DNA from: an uncultured Eubacteriales bacterium
GTDB taxonomy: Bacteria; Bacillota; Clostridia; Christensenellales; Aristaeellaceae
Assembly (NCBI GenBank): GCA_900542395.1
Contig: UQNM01000001.1
Location: 863-64,862 of the forward strand
Reading direction: 5' to 3'
DNA: 64,000 nt
The stretch's first letter is position 1, and each line of letters begins with the position of its first letter. Below the pieces are notes generated by a model, which was given only the letters and a program-made list of their open reading frames with translations, made no database searches and had not been told where the DNA came from. The position numbers were made by a program, and so were the translations under genes. Positions 42,901 through 63,723 of this stretch are shown here, piece after piece.

Positions 42901-44226
42901 TTATTTCTCGGTGATGATCTTTTTCAGATCGGCAATCGAGCTCTTCATATCCGAAGAGGTATCGAGCATCTTGGTCACCTTGTCGCAGGAATTGATGATC
43001 GTCGAGTGATCGCGGCCGAAAGCGTCGCCGATGCGCGGCAGGCTCAGCCCGGTCATCTCGCGCGTCAGATAGACGGCGACGTGGCGCGCCAGCGCGATTT
43101 CCTTCTTGCGGGAATCGCCGCGCAGCATATCCGCGCTCAGGCTGTAATAATCGGCCACGCAGTCGATAATCAGCTCCGGCGTGATGCGCTTGGGATCGCG
43201 CACGACGGCGATATCGTGCAGCGCGTGGGAGATGACCTCCTCGTTGATTTCGCAGTGGTTCAGCTTGGCGTAGGCGTTGACGCGGGTCAGCGAGCCTTCC
43301 AGCTCGCGGATGTTGCTCTCGATGCGCCCGGCGATAAGCTCCAGCATCTCGTCGCTGATTTCAATGCCCTCGTTTTCGGCCTTCTTGCGCAGAATGGCGA
43401 TTCGGGTATCGAAATCCGGCTTCTGAATGTCGGCGATCAGGCCCCACTCGAAGCGGCTGCGCAGGCGCTCCTCCAGACGGGCGATTTCGCGCGGCGGCTT
43501 ATCGGAGGAGATGATGATCTGCTTGCCCGCGCTGTGCAGGGCGTTGAAGGTGTGGAAGAATTCTTCCTGCGTGGAATCGCGGCCGGCGATAAACTGAATG
43601 TCGTCCAGCATCAGCACATCGACGTTGCGGAAGCGGTTGCGAAATTCCACGTTCTTGTTGTTCTTGATGGCGGCGACCAGCTCGTTGGTGAACATCTCGC
43701 TGGGCAGATAGAGCATGCGCATGTTCGGAAAATGATCCTGAATGAAGTGGCCGATGGCGTGCATCAGGTGCGTCTTGCCCAAGCCGACGCCGCCGTAGAG
43801 GAACAGCGGGTTATAGGCCATGCCCGGCTGCTCGGCGACGGCCAGCGCGGCGGCGTGCGCGAAGCGGTTGGACGAGCCGACAACGAACGTGTCAAACGTC
43901 GATTTCGGGTTGAACATGTTGATGCCCTGCATCGCCGGGGCGTCTTCCTTCTTCTGGCGCTCCTGCCACTCGATGCGCTCCTTGACGCTCATCAGCTCGA
44001 TGGTCATTTCGCGCCCGGCGGCCTGACTCACCGCTTCGGTGATCATCGGCAGATAGCGCGCGCGGATGGTCTTCTCGTTAAAATCGCTGATGACCTCCAG
44101 CGCGAGCTTGTCGTCCACCACATACACGGGCTTGAGCGGCTGCTCGATCCATGTGGTATAGGAAACGTTGGCCAGCTCCTCGCGCATCAGTGCCTTGGCC
44201 TTATCCCATAATTCGATATGATCCAT
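42901..44226 (-). CDS. dnaA: chromosomal replication initiator protein DnaA
   Basis: AAA+ Walker [11 protein letters not shown], DnaA signature, C-terminal HTH; GGAGG RBS. Confidence 0.92.
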
Positions 44227-44292
44227 GGCGGAAACCTCCGTATCTTCTGCGGCGCGTGACGGCCGCTTTCCCACAATCTGTACACATATCCC

Positions 44293-44492
44293 TGTGGATA
44301 TACTGTGGATATCCACAATACTTTCCACAGCTTGTGGAAAGATAGACTCCACCTGTGGATAACTTCTTATGACAGCTTTCCTATCATATCAAAAAAAAGC
44401 CCTGTTTTCAAGGCTTTTTTGGCAGGCGGCGAAAAGAAAGAAAATGCAGCTTTCATCCGCCTGCTCTGCCGGTTCATCGCGGGTTATCCACA
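44293..44492. promoter_or_regulatory. oriC/dnaA promoter region with at least six DnaA boxes (TGTGGATAT x2, ATATCCACA, TGTGGAAAG, TGTGGATAA, TTATCCACA)
   Basis: Consensus matches on both strands upstream of dnaA. Confidence 0.8.
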
Positions 44493-48492: not shown

Positions 48493-48562
48493 GGGCAAAA
48501 GAAAAAGAGACCGAAAGGCCTCTTACAGATTGTAGACAAAAAGTAAAATTCAAGTTTTTGGG

Positions 48563-48598
48563 AACAGGCGTGATTTCGGTCACGCCTGTTCCGCTTTT
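48563..48598 (+). terminator. rho-independent terminator after the GH13 gene
   Basis: gaacaggcgtga-uuucg-gucacgccuguuc followed by CGCUUUU. Confidence 0.7.
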
Positions 48599-48789
48599 AG
48601 CGGTTCGTCCACGGGAATGTATACTTGCTCCCATTGTCACAGGCTACGCACATATCTTTGTTCATGGTTTTTCTACCTCTGCACACAGTTTCAGTGCTGT
48701 TATTTTTGCTTTTATCAAGAAAAGTCCTTTTCATCTACGAAAAAAATGATCCGTATCGGCCGATTCCAGTTCCTGTTGTCAGGCATAAC

Positions 48790-49569
48790 TTACCCCTCTG
48801 ATTTTAGAATATGTTCTCGAATTACTGTTTCATGCTCTTGACAATAGGCGTAGCTGCTTCGCATAAAATCTTCAATATTTTGGCTTCTGTACATAGCGTC
48901 CAATGTGTCAAGAATAGGTTTCCCATCTACCATCATATCGAAGAAATACGGATAGACACATCCACCGTTTTCTCTCGGGAAATATGGGTTGATGGAGCTG
49001 ATCCGCTTATCTCTCATCACGGATTCGACCACCATTTCGCTCAATATCCATTTGAGTGAGGGACGCTCATATTCGTCGTAGTTATCTCCAAACAACTGGT
49101 TCCATACATAGAACCAAATAAAGTGTATGATCTCATGTATTCCACCGCCAATGGCACCCTTTGCGCTATTCAAATAAAATGTGTCATAGCAGTGCTCTTT
49201 TAGAAAACGCGGCTCAATAGGGTTCAAACTCAAATTGCAACGCAGGTCATTAAACAAGCCTGTGCAATCTATGCCGAAAGCCTCTGATAAAGCGGCTGTA
49301 ATCTGCGCTTTGCAAGCGTTCCAGTGATGAGAATATAAGGTCACCTTCTCGTTGATTGTGTTCTCCGACTCAGCATACGCAGCCCTCATGGCACGTTCAA
49401 TGTAGTCTCTTCTTTCTGCAATTGGCAAACTTATGTAGAATGCCTTATCAAGCTGCGGGTAGAAATGGTATAAAGGTTCAGACCAGAATTCAGCTTCTCC
49501 TTCGGCCTGAAAATGCATGATACTCTGAATCATATAATCGACACCGGGATTTATAAATGTAACCTCCAT
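48790..49569 (-). CDS. hypothetical protein with HExxH motif (possible DUF2268-like zincin) in a low-GC islet
   Basis: HEIIH motif; AT-rich codon usage unlike the neighbouring genes. Confidence 0.5.
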   Translation of the reverse strand: MEVTFINPGVDYMIQSIMHFQAEGEAEFWSEPLYHFYPQLDKAFYISLPIAERRDYIERAMRAAYAESENTINEKVTLYSHHWNACKAQITAALSEAFGIDCTGLFNDLRCNLSLNPIEPRFLKEHCYDTFYLNSAKGAIGGGIHEIIHFIWFYVWNQLFGDNYDEYERPSLKWILSEMVVESVMRDKRISSINPYFPRENGGCVYPYFFDMMVDGKPILDTLDAMYRSQNIEDFMRSSYAYCQEHETVIREHILKSEG

Positions 49570-49750
49570 AAATTGTTCACCTCTCCCGTTCATATATATA
49601 CACAGCATAACACAGCAATCATTTCATTTTCAATAGGTGCGACGGAAGTTATTGCCATTTAGCGACATTGTTTTGCGCCCAAACAGGTGATTTTCAACCC
49701 TTAGCTGTATAAAAACAGGCGGCACCCAACCGAAGCTGAGTGCCGTCTGT

Positions 49751-50863: not shown

Positions 50864-51877
50864 TTACAGCAGCGTGATATGCGCGTCCTCAAAGACCTTG
50901 CGGGTCTGCTCGTTCCAGATGGAGGACTGAACCTCGCCGATATGCGCCTTGCCCAGCAGCAGCATGCACAGGCGGGATTGACCGATGCCGCCGCCCATCG
51001 TCAGGGGAAGCTGGCCTTCCAGCAGCATCTTGTGGAACGGCAGCTTGCGGCGGTCGTCGCAGCCCGCCAGCGTCAACTGACGATCCAGCGATTCCGGGCT
51101 GACGCGGATGCCCATGGAGGAGATTTCCAGCGCGCTGTCCAGAATCGGGTTGTAGAACAGGATATCGCCGTTCATGTCCCAATCGTCGTAATCCGGCGCG
51201 CGGCCGTCGTGCGGCTTTCCGGAGCGCAGCTTGCCGCCGATGCCTTGAATGAACACCGTGCCGTGCTTCTTGGTGAACGCATTTTCGCGCTGCTTGGGCG
51301 TGAGATCAGGGTACAGATCCTCTAGCTCCTGCGCGGTGACGAAGGTGACGCGGCGGCGCAGCAGCGGGGTATCGCATAGCTGGGGATACTTGCCGCGCAC
51401 GGTGAGCTGCGTATCGCAGATGCAGGAGACGATGTCCGTCACCGCCTGATGCAAGGTGAACAGGGTGCGCGCCTCCGGCGTGATGACCTTCTCCCAATCC
51501 CATTGATCGACGTAGACGGAGTGCAGATTATCCAGCTCCTCGTCGCGGCGGATGGCGTTCATGTCGGTGTAAATGCCCTTGCCGGGGTGGATGTCGTAGC
51601 GATAGAGCGCCATGCGCTTCCACTTGGCCAGAGAATGGACGACCTGCGCGTTGGCGTGCGCGCAGGGGATATCGAAGCCGACCGGGCGCTCCACGCCGTT
51701 GAGATCGTCGTTCAGGCCGGAGGACGGCTCGACGAAAAGCGGCGCGGACACGCGGCGCAGATTCAATTCGCGGGAGAGCGCATCCTGAAACACACGCTTA
51801 ATCAGGCTGATGGCGCTCTGCGTTTCATACAGCGAAAGGTGCGGCGCATAGCCCGCGGGAATAAAAGACTGACCCAT
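50864..51877 (-). CDS. asnA: aspartate-ammonia ligase
   Basis: AsnA-type class II synthetase-like sequence; 337 aa. Confidence 0.8.
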   Translation of the reverse strand: MGQSFIPAGYAPHLSLYETQSAISLIKRVFQDALSRELNLRRVSAPLFVEPSSGLNDDLNGVERPVGFDIPCAHANAQVVHSLAKWKRMALYRYDIHPGKGIYTDMNAIRRDEELDNLHSVYVDQWDWEKVITPEARTLFTLHQAVTDIVSCICDTQLTVRGKYPQLCDTPLLRRRVTFVTAQELEDLYPDLTPKQRENAFTKKHGTVFIQGIGGKLRSGKPHDGRAPDYDDWDMNGDILFYNPILDSALEISSMGIRVSPESLDRQLTLAGCDDRRKLPFHKMLLEGQLPLTMGGGIGQSRLCMLLLGKAHIGEVQSSIWNEQTRKVFEDAHITLL

Positions 51878-51946
51878 CGGAAATCCCCCTTTTGATATCG
51901 GTTATATCGCGATTATACCGCGATTGCGCACGGGGCGCAAGCAAAA

Positions 51947-53623
51947 TCAATCGCCGTGCAGGGCGAAGAGCGCCGCGCCGAGCGCGCCGCAGAGATCCGG
52001 GTTTTCGCTGATGAAGAGCTTTGCACCCAGCTTCTCCTCCAGCGCCTGCACAACGCCCCGGTTCCGCGCGACGCCGCCGGTCATCATATAGGGCGGCTGT
52101 CCCTTGGCGCGCGCGGCCATGGCGGCCGTTTTCCCGGCGATGGATTGGTTCAGCCCGTGGATGATGTCGCTGTCCGTGTGGTTGTCGGCGATCAGCGAAA
52201 TCACCTCCGATTCGGCGAACACCGTGCACATGCTGGAAATGGTCAGCTCCTTTTCCCACGTCAGGCCGCGTCGGCTCATCTCCTCCATATCCAGTTCGAG
52301 CGTGCGCGCCATCATTTCCAGAAACCGCCCCGTTCCGGCGGCGCATTTGTCGTTCATCATAAAGCCGGAGACATGGCCGGTTTCGTCGAGGTTGATGACC
52401 TTGCTATCCTGCCCGCCGATGTCGATGATGGTGCGGACGGCGGGGTTCAGCGCGTGCGCGCCGCGCGCGTGGCAGGTGATTTCGGTTTTGGTTCGCGTGG
52501 CGAAGGGGATGTTGTTTCGGCCGTAGCCCGTCGCGACGATGGCGGAAAGGGCGTCCGGCTCGATGTGCAGCGTCCGGCAGACGGTTTCAAGCGCCGCCTG
52601 CGCGCCGACGTGCGCGCGCGGGCCGGTTCGGACGATGGCGAAGGCGAGCATGGCTTCGTTTTCATCCAGCACGACCATGTTCGTCGTCGTCGAGCCGCTG
52701 TCGATGCCCGCGAAGTATTTTTTCCGCGCCGCTTTTTCGGCGGCGGGCGGCTGGTTGCCCGCCTCACCGTCCGGCGCAGTCAGGCCGAGGCGCTCGCGGA
52801 AGGCCTCCAGCCGCGTGGAAAGCTGACCCGGCGCGGTCAGCGTGTAATCCGATTCGATTTTCAGCAGCGCAGCGGCGCTTTTCGCCTTCAGATCGGCGTA
52901 TTCAAAGCCGTAATAATCGCAGAATTTGACCGTGTTATAGATGATGCCGCGGATGTTCTCGTTTTCATACAGCGCGCGGCGCGACGCGATATCCGTCATG
53001 CGCATGCAGGGCGTTTGGCGAAGGAGCGCGCCTGCGTACCAATCCATCAGCGCCTCGAAGGAGAAGCCGGCGGCTTCCTCCGGCGGGTCTTCCAGCGTCC
53101 GCAGGCCGCTGCATGTCAGGTTTTCCACCGGGATGGGGAATGCGCAGCGAATCTGGCCGAGGAGCTGGGGGCTGACGCGCGCGCCGAGCACCGCGATAAA
53201 CGGCTCGCGCGGCGGATGCGCGCTCGAGTGATTCCGGCAGGCGGCGAAGAACGCCTCTTTGGAAAACGCCCTGCCCGTGTACGCGCCGTAAGCGTCGGCG
53301 AAGCGGATCAGCTCCCGCGTCAGGCGCGCGCGGGCGCAGGCCGCGTCGTCGTGCGGCAAATCGAATTGAAAGAGAAAGCGCTGCCTGCCCGCGTCCTGCA
53401 GCACGTCGCAGATTCGCCGCGTCGCGTCGCAGCAATCCGTCAGCACCAGCTCGTCCGTGTCGAGCGCCTGCGTCAGCAGCGCCTTGGCGTGGCAGCAGAC
53501 GTTGGCGTGGGTCATCGTTTCCGCGCGGGAAAAATCCGCCGTCTCCGCGTCGAGCAGCAGCGCCTCTTCGCCGTAGGCCGCGACCAGCTCCACCGGCGCG
53601 TATTTGCAGCTATACCCGATCAT
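51947..53623 (-). CDS. 2-hydroxyacyl-CoA dehydratase-family subunit fused to a CoA-substrate-specific enzyme activase (HgdC/BadF ASKHA ATPase)
   Basis: N-terminal HgdB-like region; C-terminal activase motifs (GIDSGSTTT ... GALGAALFA); ATGA overlap with the upstream gene. Confidence 0.7.
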   Translation of the reverse strand: MIGYSCKYAPVELVAAYGEEALLLDAETADFSRAETMTHANVCCHAKALLTQALDTDELVLTDCCDATRRICDVLQDAGRQRFLFQFDLPHDDAACARARLTRELIRFADAYGAYTGRAFSKEAFFAACRNHSSAHPPREPFIAVLGARVSPQLLGQIRCAFPIPVENLTCSGLRTLEDPPEEAAGFSFEALMDWYAGALLRQTPCMRMTDIASRRALYENENIRGIIYNTVKFCDYYGFEYADLKAKSAAALLKIESDYTLTAPGQLSTRLEAFRERLGLTAPDGEAGNQPPAAEKAARKKYFAGIDSGSTTTNMVVLDENEAMLAFAIVRTGPRAHVGAQAALETVCRTLHIEPDALSAIVATGYGRNNIPFATRTKTEITCHARGAHALNPAVRTIIDIGGQDSKVINLDETGHVSGFMMNDKCAAGTGRFLEMMARTLELDMEEMSRRGLTWEKELTISSMCTVFAESEVISLIADNHTDSDIIHGLNQSIAGKTAAMAARAKGQPPYMMTGGVARNRGVVQALEEKLGAKLFISENPDLCGALGAALFALHGD

Positions 53624-54906
53624 GCGTCCATCCCCTCCAGTTGTTCCAGAAACGCGCCGACGCGCGTGACCATCTGCCCGTCCGCGACGTTTCGGCTGTC
53701 GCAGCCGTCGCCGTCGAGCACCAGCGTCGGCAGACCGGCTTCCTCCAGCCTGCGCTTGGCGAGTGTGGACAGCCCCATCGTCTGCTTGCAGCCCCAGTGG
53801 CAGAAGAGGATCACGCCGTCCGCGTTCAGCTTTTTTGCCCACGCGATCGCGTTGTCGATGCGCCGCGCGGCGCTTCCGCCGTTCACGTTGGCGAGCAGCC
53901 GCCGCGCCATGCTTTCAAACGGCTTTTCCGGGTCGAGCGCCGTGAGCGAATCGAAGGTGAGGTCGCAGCCGACCAGCTCGCATCGGTTTTCCGTTTCGAG
54001 CATCCGGATCATGGAATCCTGCCAGTTGGGCAGGGTGTGGATGAAGAAGATGCGCTTGCGGCGCGTCGTCTCCCGCCGGGGCGCGCGTCTGGCGGTTTCA
54101 ATCAATTCGCGGACGTAGTTTTCGCCGTCCGCGTGGCCGAGAAGGCAGTGCGTCGCAATCAGGCTGCACAGTTCGCCCGTCATCGTCGTGTCCTGCGTGA
54201 CCTCCGCGCGCAGGGCGGCATATTCGCGCATCAGCTTTAGCGTGCGGTCGGCGCAGGCCATCGACTTGCGCAGCTTCGCCTCGTCGAGCTTTCGCCCGGT
54301 CAGGGCTTCCAGTCTGCGCGTCATGCCGCGAAGCTGGTCGGCGACATAGGCCACGGCGTCGTCGTCCGCGCGGCCGGGCACGTCGATGATCGTCAGCGGC
54401 GCGGGATAAAGCGCGGCCAGCCGCCGGAAGGAGAGCTGGTTCGCGTCGCAGGCGAGCGTCGTTCCGGCGATCATCAGCGGCTTGGGCAGCACGCCGGTTT
54501 CCGCCATGCCGAGCATCGTCTTGTGATAGGAGCAGAAGCTCTCCGGGATGCCGGAGACCTCCGCGCGCTCGGCGAAGACATGCTGGCAGGCTGTGCAGGC
54601 GACGTAGACGGAAAGCCCCTCCGGGAACATCGGCGTGAGCCCCATCGCGTGCAGCATTTCGCACGGCATGAAGATATTGACGCATACGGCGCGCTCGGGA
54701 TGGCGAAGGCCGCACACAAGGGAGCGGGCGACCGCGCCGTTCATCCGCGCGTAGGCGGATTTGGCGTCCGTCAGCCTTTGGCATTTTCCGGAAAAGCGCA
54801 CCCACGAATAGGCTGCCGTCAGCATCCGGCGCGCGCGGCGGGGATGGGGCGCGACCTGAGCGGAAATCATGCGTCCGAGGGTTTCGATATAGCTTTGCAT
54901 ACACAC
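53620..54906 (-). CDS. 2-hydroxyacyl-CoA dehydratase family protein (HgdA/HadB-like)
   Basis: Cys-rich dehydratase-family sequence (PF06050-like). Confidence 0.7.
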   Translation of the reverse strand: MCMQSYIETLGRMISAQVAPHPRRARRMLTAAYSWVRFSGKCQRLTDAKSAYARMNGAVARSLVCGLRHPERAVCVNIFMPCEMLHAMGLTPMFPEGLSVYVACTACQHVFAERAEVSGIPESFCSYHKTMLGMAETGVLPKPLMIAGTTLACDANQLSFRRLAALYPAPLTIIDVPGRADDDAVAYVADQLRGMTRRLEALTGRKLDEAKLRKSMACADRTLKLMREYAALRAEVTQDTTMTGELCSLIATHCLLGHADGENYVRELIETARRAPRRETTRRKRIFFIHTLPNWQDSMIRMLETENRCELVGCDLTFDSLTALDPEKPFESMARRLLANVNGGSAARRIDNAIAWAKKLNADGVILFCHWGCKQTMGLSTLAKRRLEEAGLPTLVLDGDGCDSRNVADGQMVTRVGAFLEQLEGMDA

Positions 54907-54933
54907 ACCCGTTTCAGCAGAATAACGAAACCA

Positions 54934-54961
54934 TTATAAATTCTGTCCCCCGGCGCGTCAA
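54934..54961 (-). promoter_or_regulatory. sigma-A promoter TTGACG-16-TATAAT for the dehydratase operon
   Basis: Hexamers on the minus strand upstream of 54906. Confidence 0.5.
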
Positions 54962-55037: not shown

Positions 55038-55162
55038 TCAGACTGTAGACAAAAAGCTATTCTCCCCCCGAAGGGGGGAGAATAGCCCTTTCCGCAAATG
55101 AAAGAATCGCTGAATTTCTTGATTTTGCGATTCAAGCCAAGTTTGCTTATGTCAGCAAGCTG
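55038..55162 (+). repeat. Family B repeat, copy 2 (candidate 5' UTR element), downstream of an extended -10 sequence TGATATAAT at about 55000
   Basis: About 95% identical to 6824-6948. Confidence 0.7.
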
Positions 55163-62420: not shown

Positions 62421-63011
62421 ATGAACGTTTTGAGGAGGCTGCTGATGGTGCTTGCGGCGCTTGTTTTGTTCGGCGCGGTCTGCGCGGCCGGGCTGGTCGG
62501 CTTTGTCTATTACAAGGAGACGCATCTGCCCCCGGTCGGCGAATTTGACACCATCATCGTGCTCGGCGCACAGGTCAAGGCGGACGGCACGCCCTCCGTC
62601 GCGCTGGAAAGGCGGCTGACGGCGGCGCTGGAGGAATACCGGAAGCAGCCGCGGCTGATGATCGTCTGCGGCGCGCAGGGCAGCGACGAGCCGCGTGCGG
62701 AGGGCGACGTGATGCGCGACTGGCTGATCGCGCACGGCGTTGCGGCGGCGGACATCGAGGCGGAGACCGATTCGTTCAACACGCGGCAGAACCTCGGCTA
62801 CGCGCAATCCATCATGGACGACCGCAGGCTGACGGCGGCGCTGATCGTCACCAGTGATTACCACGTGCCGCGCGCGCTGGCGCTGTGCGAGCAGGTCGGC
62901 ATCGTCGCCAGCGGCAAGGGCAGCCCCTCCAAGCCGGAATATTTCATCAAAAACCATCTGCGCGAGGGGCTGAGCTGGATTAAATTTGTATGGGAGAGTC
63001 GGCATGAATAA
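62421..63011 (+). CDS. YdcF/DUF218 (SanA-like) family protein
   Basis: N-terminal TM segment plus DUF218 core. Confidence 0.65.
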   Translation: MNVLRRLLMVLAALVLFGAVCAAGLVGFVYYKETHLPPVGEFDTIIVLGAQVKADGTPSVALERRLTAALEEYRKQPRLMIVCGAQGSDEPRAEGDVMRDWLIAHGVAAADIEAETDSFNTRQNLGYAQSIMDDRRLTAALIVTSDYHVPRALALCEQVGIVASGKGSPSKPEYFIKNHLREGLSWIKFVWESRHE

Positions 63012-63723
63012 GGAGAGACTGAAGACCGGGCTGGAGATGATGGGCGTTGCGGCGGACGAAACCGCGCTGGATCGCTTTGAAGCCTTTCACGCCATTCTGG
63101 ATGAATACAATGCGCGCATGGATTTGACCGCCGTGCTGGACGAAGACGAGCGCGTGGATCGCCACGATCTGGACAGCGCCGCGCCGCTGGCGCACGGGCT
63201 GCTGGCGCAGGGTGCGAAGGTCATCGACGTCGGCACGGGTGCGGGCTTTCCCGGCATGCCGCTGCTGATTCTGCGCCCCGATCTGCAAATCACGTTTCTG
63301 GACGCGCTGAACAAGCGCATCCTGTTTCTGGAGGACGCATTGAAGCGCCTCGGCCTGACGGCGGCGACGCTGCACGCGCGCGCGGAGGACGCGGCCAAAA
63401 TGGCGGCGCACCGCGAGCAATACGACGCGGCGGTTTCCCGCGCGGTCGCAAACGCGGCGACGCTGGAGGAGCTGACGCTCCCGTTTGTCAAAAAGGGCGG
63501 CGTGGCGATTGCGTGGAAGGGCCCCGGCGTGGCCGACGAGCTGACGGCGGCGCGGCGCGCGGCGTTCCTGCTGGGCGGCACGGTGCGCGGCACGGTGGAT
63601 GCGCCGATCCCCCGCCGGGCGGACTGGGCGCACGTGCTGCTGCTGACGGATAAGACCGGCACGACCCCGAAGGCGTACCCGCGCAAGGCCGGAACGCCGG
63701 GGAAAAAGCCGCTCGGGATGTAA
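63004..63723 (+). CDS. rsmG: 16S rRNA (guanine527-N7)-methyltransferase
   Basis: GidB-like SAM methyltransferase motif VIDVGTGAGFPG. Confidence 0.85.
   Translation: MNKERLKTGLEMMGVAADETALDRFEAFHAILDEYNARMDLTAVLDEDERVDRHDLDSAAPLAHGLLAQGAKVIDVGTGAGFPGMPLLILRPDLQITFLDALNKRILFLEDALKRLGLTAATLHARAEDAAKMAAHREQYDAAVSRAVANAATLEELTLPFVKKGGVAIAWKGPGVADELTAARRAAFLLGGTVRGTVDAPIPRRADWAHVLLLTDKTGTTPKAYPRKAGTPGKKPLGM

Follow-up and report, generated by a model that had tools for sequence, protein, structure and literature searches.

A two-gene module of the BCR/HAD/DCCP superfamily in an uncultured Eubacteriales bacterium, predicted to encode an ATP-driven iron-sulfur enzyme

The window analysed here is a stretch of 64,000 nucleotides of contig UQNM01000001.1 from an uncultured Eubacteriales bacterium. 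It carries two overlapping genes on the minus strand, which together make up a module of about 3 kb. Gene A (53620..54900) encodes an alpha-like subunit of 426 aa, and gene B (51947..53623) encodes a protein of 558 aa, in which a short HGD-D domain is fused to a BadF/HgdC-type ATPase. The sequence-only reading had found both open reading frames on this strand and had started gene A at 54906. The frames and the strand stand, but the start does not; the gene A frame can be extended to a GTG at 54906, but homologues begin at the ATG at 54900 (consensus MKKYIE...), and gene A was therefore taken as 53620-54900. The ATGA stop/start overlap of the two genes, also noticed earlier, is present at 53620..53623 (minus strand) and is predicted to couple their translation. 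A putative sigma-70-like promoter, TTGACG-N17-TATAAT (54933..54961, minus strand), lies upstream of gene A and has 11/12 matches; four such sites occur in the region, against 0.8 expected. Its -35 and -10 sequences are those proposed before, whereas the spacer is 17 nt and not 16 nt. asnA (50864-51877, minus strand) is co-directional with the module, as had been stated, and passes the TIGR00669 equivalog cut-off (329.5 bits against 292.8). The sole terminator candidate between gene B and asnA is a weak stem of 5 bp that overlaps the stop codon, and asnA is preceded by a TATAAT box whose -35 is poor. In 10/86 loci, all of them close relatives, asnA comes after the module, and because the adjacency is limited to these, a link between asnA and the module was rejected as incidental. 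An Rfam scan of 48-57 kb found no leader or riboswitch. A long plus-strand ORF (51956-54118) looks like an antisense shadow, since the antisense ORFs group in clusters solely where they mirror genes A and B; such shadow ORFs are typical for 62% GC DNA. The features of genes A and B are far beyond chance, and neither the window nor the fetched loci contain a further activase or HGD-D copy.

Gene A covers the whole Pfam HGD-D model (PF06050) with E=4e-70. In profile searches against the PDB, gene A matched HadB (9e-21), BzdO (7e-15) and DCCP (8e-12). The AlphaFold2 model of gene A (pLDDT 91.5, pTM 0.91) keeps the N-terminal helices and the helical middle domain, and its top Foldseek match is again HadB (TM 0.76-0.81), with an identity of only about 19% in the structure-based alignment. 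Thus, gene A is HgdA/HadB-like, as first proposed, in that its best PDB relative is HadB by both sequence and fold. C123, C151 and C371 of gene A are 100% conserved in 86 loci and align with Cys95, Cys128/129 and Cys380 of BzdO. These three invariant cysteines match a predicted catalytic open-site [4Fe-4S] cluster. The residue after the third cysteine is Lys in gene A and HadB, and Glu in BzdO; the conserved residues of gene A are mostly polar. The core subfamily conserves three further cysteines, C80, C367 and C400, at 94-98%. The idea that gene A holds a second double cubane was rejected, since these cysteines are off the distal-ligand positions of DCCP and BzdN and are lost in distant paired homologues. 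They are probably accessory.

The N-domain of gene B (aa 1-285; 52769..53623, minus strand) is a trimmed DCCP/BzdN-like beta subunit. Residues 1 to about 285 match HGD-D (PF06050) with E=1e-29 to 1e-30. In profile searches against the PDB, DCCP (1.5e-29) came before HadC (5e-14) and BzdN (3e-9), and Foldseek ranked DCCP 6ENO first, followed by BzdN and HadC. The fold matches of gene A and of this domain to HadB, BzdO and DCCP lie at TM 0.67-0.81. In this domain, the N-terminal helix is missing, as is the larger part of the helical middle domain; the missing parts correspond to DCCP residues 1-73 and about 214-258. Nevertheless, the domain keeps a six-cysteine double-cubane motif. Using the ligand lists of PMC11971306 (Bzd) and PMC7317905 (DCCP), C6, C43, C65, C171, C206 and C235 were aligned with Cys36, 73, 100, 263, 293 and 327 of BzdN and with the DCCP ligands; C64 is also present. 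The cysteines of this domain are 100% conserved in 81 loci and 92-100% conserved among 38 representatives of 50%-identity clusters. The invariant C6, C171 and C206, cysteines that HadC is without, occupy the distal-subcluster positions of DCCP and BzdN. In the HMM alignment to 6ENO/7YYL, the equivalent of the non-ligand Cys94 of DCCP is absent. Therefore, the domain keeps all six cysteines for a predicted [8Fe-9S] double cubane. The sequence-only reading had described gene B as an HgdB-like subunit joined to an HgdC/BadF-type activase; the fusion is confirmed, but the HgdB-like assignment gives way to DCCP as the closest relative and to the six-cysteine motif. Cysteine ligands for the clusters, on which that reading depended, are present in both genes.

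A flexible linker (aa 286-302; 52718..52768, minus strand) joins the two domains of gene B. Its pLDDT in AlphaFold2 is below 50 at residues 286-299, and this stretch is variable and gappy in the homologue alignment. The C-domain (aa 303-558 and the stop codon; 51947..52717, minus strand) is an ASKHA archerase/activase. Residues 303-555 match BcrAD_BadFG with 2e-59, and the domain scores 245 bits with TIGR00241 'acyl-CoA dehydratase activase', whose cut-off is 125. It matches HadI, MbdQ and HgdC with E=1e-56 to 1e-61 (HadI, E=3e-61), with both cluster cysteines aligned, and is 42% identical to these three proteins in structural alignments. C427, C466 and the ATP motifs GIDSGST, DIGGQD and TGGVA are invariant. 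These results bear out the claim that gene B contains an electron-injecting activase and, as judged from sequence, the domain is a complete archerase. C427 and C466 would ligate a [4Fe-4S] cluster bridging two activase domains.

The fused architecture is not rare, although it had been called uncommon. A homologue search with gene B gave 6,954 matches, and the best 120 all have the architecture of about 550 aa; homologues of this length number in the thousands. A search with the N-domain alone found 900 clusters at 50% identity, and at least 557 species genomes contain a relative of gene A. Fused homologues of 545-585 aa are found in Oscillospiraceae and Lachnospiraceae, and also in Eggerthellaceae and Spirochaetes. 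Carriers include the amino-acid fermenters Aminicella lysinilytica and Hornefia butyriciproducens. The fusion was already described in a 2020 review as class III DCCP, 'abundant among firmicutes' (PMC7317905). ORFs were called in 80 genome loci and about 20 metagenome loci and compared all-against-all for clustering. Both genes are present in 81/82 informative loci, the 4-nt overlap is kept in 63/81 homologous loci, and the two genes remain paired at identities as low as 33-39%. They thus form an obligate module. Fused homologues at a greater distance (29-32% identity) occur on their own, with no alpha gene, indicating that the beta-type domain evidently can work without alpha.

Gene B closely resembles class III DCCP (Jeoung, Martins & Dobbek 2020, PMC7317905), a class that is itself uncharacterised. 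A class III protein is one chain of about 550 aa containing a DCCP domain and its ATP-dependent reductase, with the six double-cubane cysteines present and Cys94 absent, and both are true of gene B (PMC7317905). The best solved relative of the gene B N-domain is DCCP, from the DCCP/DCCP-R system of Carboxydothermus hydrogenoformans (PDB 6ENO, 7YYL). These likenesses, together with the stand-alone distant homologues and with an absence of conserved pathway neighbours that would suit a stand-alone reductase, favour a DCCP-like enzyme that reduces small molecules, such as substrates of the acetylene, azide or hydrazine type or other refractory compounds, with detoxification as a possible purpose. 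Catalysis would then take place at the double cubane of gene B, and gene A would serve as a structural or electron-transfer partner. We regard this as very unlikely. A partner goes unmentioned for class III DCCP in the review PMC7317905, whereas here a HadB-like three-cysteine subunit is co-encoded in 81/82 loci, which implies a heterodimer in contrast to the homodimeric DCCP. Alpha is obligatorily co-encoded and translationally coupled in this subfamily, and it retains the three-cysteine open site and the full helical domains, which form the substrate channel in HadB and BzdO, while beta lost most of them. In BzdNO, moreover, the double cubane is an electron store rather than the active site (PMC11971306).

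The module has two homologous subunits of the HGD-D fold (PF06050) and an ASKHA ATPase with two cysteines per monomer, and it is an uncharacterised variant of the known BCR/HAD/DCCP superfamily. None of the models for characterised dehydratases or reductases comes near its cut-off: HadB gives 84 bits against 750, HadC 41 against 700, BzdO/BzdN about 30 against about 450, the Bzd/Bcr equivalog models 20-30 bits on gene A against 420-490, BzdQ 178 bits on the activase domain against 380, and the NCBIfam double_cubane model 63-69 bits against 350. The class I benzoyl-CoA reductases BzdNOPQ/MbdONPQ (PDB 8S02, 9GAI; PMC11971306) also combine a three-cysteine [4Fe-4S] subunit with a six-cysteine [8Fe-9S] subunit, a match at the motif level only, and their ASKHA ATPase with a bridging [4Fe-4S] cluster is permanently associated, as it is by fusion in the module. 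However, they have two distinct ATPase subunits (P and Q) where the module has one fused domain, the beta subunit of the module is without the helical bundle, alpha is nearer to HadB than to BzdO, and no aromatic-degradation genes lie near the module. Class I BCR membership thus fails on the four subunits with two ATPases, on equivalog similarity and on the aromatic-degradation context.

The module was also compared with (R)-2-hydroxyisocaproyl-CoA dehydratase HadBC and its activator HadI (PDB 3O3M, 4EHT), and with HgdAB/HgdC. The module might be a classical (R)-2-hydroxyacyl-CoA dehydratase of amino-acid fermentation with the activator fused to beta, in which one electron serves many turnovers. 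Alpha is most HadB-like in sequence and fold and shares the three cysteine ligands and the Cys-Lys motif with HadB, the activase matches HadI strongly, in public annotation both proteins are named as dehydratase, and several carriers, including the two named above, ferment amino acids. This reading is nevertheless distinctly improbable. The HadB and HadC scores lie far below the equivalog cut-offs, and clear orthology to a characterised dehydratase with its pathway genes, which was to be looked for, was not found. Gene B has the six-cysteine double-cubane motif, but HadC has three cysteines, with a [4Fe-5S]-type cluster. The Had activator is a separate, transiently binding protein, and not a fused domain. 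The had and hgd operons contain genes for CoA-transferase and acyl-CoA dehydrogenase/ETF, which are absent at the module. Annotation of the neighbours between 21.9 and 63.7 kb showed no CoA-transferase, acyl-CoA dehydrogenase or ETF gene, in agreement with the earlier observation, and neither these genes nor a 2-hydroxyacid dehydrogenase gene was adjacent in the annotated part of the window or in about 100 related loci. Besides genes A and B and their antisense shadows, there is no conserved neighbour, the most frequent one occurring in 11/86 loci; the neighbours are housekeeping genes that differ by clade. This agrees with the earlier remark that the module may not belong to a classical fermentation pathway.

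Taken with the comparisons above, these data make it fairly probable that the module encodes one self-contained, ATP-driven, low-potential iron-sulfur enzyme with a BzdNO-like layout and a HadB/BzdO-like alpha subunit, with reduction favoured as its reaction. The enzyme would be oxygen-sensitive. As archerases are homodimeric, two gene B chains would dimerise via their activase domains, sharing one [4Fe-4S] cluster, to give an (alpha-beta-activase)2 complex. Reduced ferredoxin or flavodoxin would load the activase cluster, and ATP hydrolysis would push the electron uphill into the double cubane of beta, which could store more than one electron; the double cubane of BzdN stores at least 2 electrons (PMC11971306). 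The electron would then pass to the [4Fe-4S] cluster of alpha, where a substrate carbonyl at the free iron may form a ketyl-type radical. In BCRs, the ATPase is stably bound in the complex and ATP is consumed stoichiometrically, whereas a catalytic electron suffices for HADs (PMC9351452). Stoichiometric ATP-coupled reduction, possibly followed by dehydration, seems more likely than classical 2-hydroxyacyl-CoA dehydration, because the cluster layout and the tethered ATPase resemble BzdNO/MbdONPQ and DCCP rather than the dehydratases using a catalytic electron. A fused activator alone does not prove stoichiometric use of ATP. A dehydratase-type reaction is also plausible, as alpha is globally closer to HadB and has Lys after its third cysteine. 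As no pathway gene is conserved beside the module and its surroundings are of the housekeeping kind, the substrate is more likely to be a common metabolite of the cell than one that is fermented, and the module is probably a reductase, possibly with dehydration, acting on such a metabolite.

One tentative direction for the substrate, a weak lead, is membrane lipids. FakA lies 26-93 bp upstream of the module in L018, L024, L027 and L030, DegV/FakB abuts or overlaps the module start in L020 and L034, a PlsC-type acyltransferase overlaps the module end in L026, L029, L031 and L032, GlpP is upstream in L079-L082, and FabH and FabF follow the module in L100. These lipid genes adjoin the module in separate clades, and they would suit a lipid-ester reductase akin to PlsA/PlsR or Ger, which would convert a glycerolipid acyl ester to a vinyl or alkyl ether with two ATP-energised electrons and dehydration, or carry out another acyl-chain modification. 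PlsA/PlsR and Ger also belong to the BCR/HAD superfamily as one- or two-gene units joining activation and reduction/dehydration domains, PlsA/PlsR being a two-gene unit of strict anaerobes including Clostridia, Eggerthellales and Coriobacteriales; like the module, they are common among strict anaerobes and have no other pathway genes conserved around them. The chemistry proposed for PlsA/PlsR is two one-electron reductions and then dehydration, and a dehydratase-like alpha with a two-electron-storing beta fits this. In addition, PMC13274423 (2026) relates PlsA-like homologues with a single activation domain to plasmalogen production in Bacillota, as a correlation and a putative role. However, the architecture differs. 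PlsA/Ger has two tandem PF01869 domains and PF09989 (DUF2229), about 1,400 aa in total (PMC13159169), whereas the module, compared with this described architecture, has one PF01869 and two PF06050, and PF09989 gave no match in genes A and B even at E<=10. Membership in PlsA/PlsR was rejected on this architecture. The lipid neighbours occur in only about 15/86 loci, perhaps in 4 independent events, and the category was chosen post hoc, with p about 0.01 as a rough estimate before correction for that choice. In other clades, aconitase/IDH, MTA phosphorylase, H+-PPase or sugar regulators adjoin the module, and the mostly polar conserved residues of alpha speak against a lipid. Overall, a lipid-ester reductase is an unlikely, tentative reading.

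Some of the chemistry of benzoyl-CoA reductases, 2-hydroxyacyl-CoA dehydratases and double-cubane enzymes is among the most reducing in biology. Hundreds of anaerobe species carry the module, abundant Clostridia of the human gut among them, and it appears to combine a predicted double cubane with a dehydratase-type active site. Being also compact and self-contained, it would be a tractable system in which to study the purpose of double cubanes and the coupling of ATP to electron transfer by a tethered activase. Should the lipid reading prove true, the module would also bear on ether-lipid synthesis by gut bacteria. It is conceivable, if quite doubtful, that the module is the first example of an unrecognised class of heterodimers widespread in gut anaerobes, in which a HadB-like [4Fe-4S] subunit and a minimal [8Fe-9S] subunit with its own ATPase carry out ATP-driven two-electron reduction and dehydration of a membrane-lipid ester, providing a PlsA-independent route to plasmalogens or ether lipids or a related acyl modification; a second defined physiological role would then be known for the double-cubane cofactor. 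Since the architecture is already in the literature as class III DCCP, the module is a good target rather than a surprise. As for the source of electrons, ferredoxin and a four-subunit 2-oxoacid:ferredoxin oxidoreductase are encoded directly after the module in one distant locus, where they are a plausible electron supply.

The module consists of two overlapping minus-strand ORFs (53620-54906 and 51947-53842) in the window, whose GC content is about 62%. A sequence-only reading had placed the first gene (gene A, the alpha subunit) at 53620-54906; the ORF has this extent, but homologues begin at the ATG at 54900, so that gene A spans 53620-54900 and encodes 426 aa. Gene B (beta subunit and activase, 51947-53623, minus strand) starts at the ATG at 53623 and encodes 558 aa. 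The stop codon of gene A and the start codon of gene B overlap as ATGA, as that reading had described, and a GGAGG precedes the gene B ATG; the two-gene module is a real feature. The Pfam domain HGD-D spans gene A end to end (4e-70). In gene B, residues 1 to about 285 match HGD-D and residues 306-554 match BcrAD_BadFG (2e-59), and TIGR00241, "acyl-CoA dehydratase activase", scores 245 bits against a cut-off of 125. The family had been assigned broadly correctly. A promoter-like TTGACG-N17-TATAAT is located at 54961-54933 on the minus strand; the site is the one reported before, but its spacer is 17 nt rather than 16. A 720-aa ORF on the plus strand over the module DNA was rejected as an antisense shadow when ORFs of homologous loci were compared. 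The divergent intergenic region also holds a strong terminator-like hairpin (55062-55082, minus strand) with an 8 bp stem, a TTCG-type loop and a T-run, some 100 bp upstream of the promoter, and there is no upstream minus-strand gene for it to terminate.

The N-terminal domain of gene B had been called HgdB-like. It does belong to the HGD-D family, but a profile of 15 diverse sequences matched the double-cubane cluster protein (DCCP) of Carboxydothermus (6ENO/7YYL) at 1.5e-29, compared with 5e-14 for HadC and 3e-9 for BzdN among solved structures. DCCP has six double-cubane ligands, on which gene B C6, C43, C65, C171, C206 and C235 align, and the same residues align on BzdN Cys36, 73, 100, 263, 293 and 327, the BzdN ligand list being taken from PMC11971306. 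The profile alignment showed no counterpart in gene B of the non-ligand Cys94 of DCCP. These six cysteines and C64 are present in 100% of 81 loci, and among 38 distant representatives their conservation is 92-100%. C64 and C65 (window 53429-53434) form an invariant Cys-Cys-Asp motif, in which C65 alone aligns with a DCCP/BzdN ligand; C64 is extra, fully conserved and specific to the gene B family. Membership in the 2-hydroxyacyl-CoA dehydratases (HAD) was rejected because the beta cysteine pattern is wrong: HadC has only three of the six positions, the proximal ones. Compared with DCCP, the domain is missing residues 1-73 and about 214-258, or, compared with BzdN, residues 1-32 and about 167-226, and these missing segments make up most of the BzdNO four-helix bundle, which shapes the CoA channel in that enzyme (PMC11971306). 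In the AlphaFold2 model of gene B, two helices connect a pair of alpha/beta subdomains, and residues 286-299 form a disordered linker to the ATPase. In Foldseek searches, the N-domain resembled DCCP more than BzdN and BzdN more than HadC, and the C-domain matched MbdQ, HadI and HgdC. The cluster cysteines of this ASKHA activase, or archerase (C427 and C466), and its ATP motifs are invariant. The N-domain is thus better described as a predicted minimal double-cubane subunit.

Gene A is closest to a dehydratase subunit. Its profile matched HadB (9e-21) better than BzdO (7e-15) and DCCP (8e-12), and its AlphaFold2 model is confident (pLDDT 91.5, pTM 0.91) and has HadB as the best fold match (TM 0.76-0.81), followed by MbdO and BzdO. 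The model retains the helical middle domain and, at the N-terminus, long helices. C123, C151 and C371 are invariant; in the alignments their counterparts are the ligands of HadB and, in BzdO, Cys95, Cys128/129 and Cys380. Three further cysteines, C80, C367 and C400, are 94-98% conserved across the 86 loci, which represent the core subfamily. HadB has Gln, Met and Ala in their place; they are not at DCCP distal-ligand positions, and distant paired homologues no longer have them. They are regarded as accessory; possible roles are an extra metal site, a thiol donor of a proton or H atom, or a disulfide.

Of the 86 loci with a gene A homologue, 81 have a fused gene B homologue next to it downstream, and the two genes overlap by 4 nt in 63 of these 81. 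At four of the other five loci the contig comes to an end, and one (L076) genuinely lacks a downstream gene B. At L076 (9983-14500), the gene A homologue carries insertions, downstream sequence is ample, and an opposite-strand membrane protein gene comes next. Upstream of fused homologues with 39%, 36% and 33% identity there is still an HGD-D gene of about 425 aa, but two with 32% and 29% identity have no HGD-D alpha gene next to them and stand alone (L095, 6001-7653, and L098, 939-2654; 550-571 aa). Because pairing is kept at 33-39% and lost at 29-32% identity, the window family appears to be a heterodimeric branch beside a stand-alone branch.

The fusion had been considered uncommon. This does not hold, since a search with gene B gave 6,954 matches and the architecture has been described: Jeoung, Martins and Dobbek (2020) defined "class III" potential double-cubane cluster proteins, abundant in Firmicutes, in which six coordinating cysteines are kept, the seventh is missing, and enzyme and reductase are joined in a single chain of about 550 aa (PMC7317905). 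Thus, the fusion is neither rare nor unnoticed. Gene B has every feature stated for class III, but an obligatory alpha partner is not in the published description (PMC7317905). The published category probably mixes both branches, because the 29-32% homologues have no alpha gene, and the stand-alone branch is a better fit to a homodimeric class III DCCP than the heterodimeric window family. The obligate HadB-like partner of a class III fusion is new relative to the literature examined. The best 120 of the 6,954 matches (58-99% identity, 545-585 aa) all have HGD-D plus BcrAD_BadFG, come from Oscillospiraceae, Butyricicoccus, Dysosmobacter and Lachnospiraceae, and, where named, are called "acyl-CoA dehydratase activase". 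The gene B N-domain alone gave 900 clusters at 50% identity. Gene A patterns matched at least 557 species genomes; the matches listed include Eggerthellaceae and Spirochaetes (Treponema, Rectinema), and the cultured carriers Lawsonibacter hominis, Aminicella lysinilytica, Hornefia butyriciproducens and Anaerotardibacter muris. Genes A and B (426 and 558 aa), though different proteins, share one 90%-identity cluster whose 4,725 metagenomic members are not a count of one protein; read-through or fused gene calls, such as 519-530-aa products, may be behind it.

With two HGD-D units and an archerase, the module belongs to the superfamily of benzoyl-CoA reductases (BCR), HAD and DCCP (BCR/HAD/DCCP). 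Membership in any characterised dehydratase or reductase family was rejected, as equivalog models were far below their cut-offs and pathway context was absent. From the alignments, we predict that alpha holds a [4Fe-4S] cluster with an open site, that beta holds an [8Fe-9S] cluster and that the ATPase carries a bridging [4Fe-4S] cluster. The same layout has been solved in BzdNO and MbdONPQ, whose double cubane receives electrons from the ATPase module and stores two or more of them (PMC11971306). Through the pairing, a compact module of two genes, common among gut anaerobes, is predicted to have a BzdNO-like arrangement of clusters. In BCRs the ATPase stays in a stable complex and ATP is spent stoichiometrically, whereas in HADs the activator is bound transiently and one electron is recycled (PMC9351452). 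Because the covalent tether and the predicted double cubane resemble BCR, analogy leans towards a stoichiometric reductase. Dehydration chemistry is still in play because alpha is closer kin to HadB, and reduction followed by dehydration would use both BCR-like and HadB-like features. Archerases such as HgdC and HadI are homodimers, and from this the simplest assembly would be (alpha-beta-activase)2. Ferredoxin would be a likely electron donor, with circumstantial support from L100 (3078-7946), where genes for a ferredoxin, a four-subunit 2-oxoacid:ferredoxin oxidoreductase, FabH and FabF directly follow a distant paired module. The anaerobic plasmalogen synthase PlsA/PlsR resembles the module as a self-contained BCR/HAD-type unit widespread in anaerobes, and its proposed chemistry is two reductions, then dehydration. 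PlsA/Ger is defined by two PF01869 domains plus PF09989 (PMC13159169), an architecture that the module does not have. In a 2026 study, PlsA-like homologues with a single activation domain correlated with plasmalogen production in Bacillota, their roles being left unassigned there (PMC13274423).

Beyond genes A and B no neighbour is conserved, the most frequent one occurring in 11 of the 86 loci. CoA-transferase and acyl-CoA dehydrogenase genes, reported as absent before, and ETF genes were indeed not found among the neighbours at the window locus or the other loci. The co-directional asnA (50864-51877, minus strand; TIGR00669 above cut-off) is genuine, but its association is incidental, as it is found downstream of the module in 10 loci, all from the nearest relatives. 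Gene B and asnA are separated by 69 bp (51878-51946) that contain a GGGGGA ribosome-binding site and a perfect TATAAT with a poor -35 (TTGCGC, 17-nt spacer); asnA may use its own weak promoter plus read-through from the module. In other clades, aconitase and isocitrate dehydrogenase genes inside a ribosomal-protein cluster, or LacI/TetR regulators, lie upstream of the module, 5-oxoprolinase genes or sulfatases lie beside it, and in another clade an MTA-phosphorylase-like gene follows it. In Eggerthellaceae (L086/L087, 5217-13723; also L040-L046), a tight co-directional run that interrupts the ribosomal protein genes between L11/L1 and L10/L12 encodes isocitrate/isopropylmalate dehydrogenase, an 881-aa aconitase, alpha, beta-activase and a 590-aa membrane-anchored protein without a Pfam match, with gaps of 8-10 bp between aconitase and gene A and 10-14 bp after gene B. 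Membrane-lipid genes are tightly linked to the module in separate clades: FakA lies 26-93 bp upstream in 4 loci, DegV/FakB abuts or overlaps the module start in 2 loci, a PlsC-type acyltransferase overlaps its end in 4 loci, GlpP is upstream in 4 loci, and the FabH and FabF genes at L100 are a further case. This recurring theme is suggestive but weak, amounting to about four independent events in a category picked after seeing the data.

The neighbours of the module in the window are housekeeping genes (amylase, aldose epimerase, MBL-fold protein, ThrE, SNF2 helicase, HAD hydrolase, RadC). Since dnaA (42901-44352, minus strand) and rsmG (gidB; 62986-63723, plus strand) are both in the window, the module lies near the replication origin region of the chromosome; the minimum of the cumulative GC skew is at about 16-18 kb, not at dnaA. 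Between the alpha-amylase and aldose-epimerase genes there is a low-GC island of about 1.2 kb (48500-49700; 37-47% GC versus about 62% around it), containing a 272-aa minus-strand ORF (48790-49608) with no Pfam or NCBIfam match. The island looks like a recent insertion, because in L004 and L005, relatives with 84% identity, only some 140 bp separate the two flanking genes.
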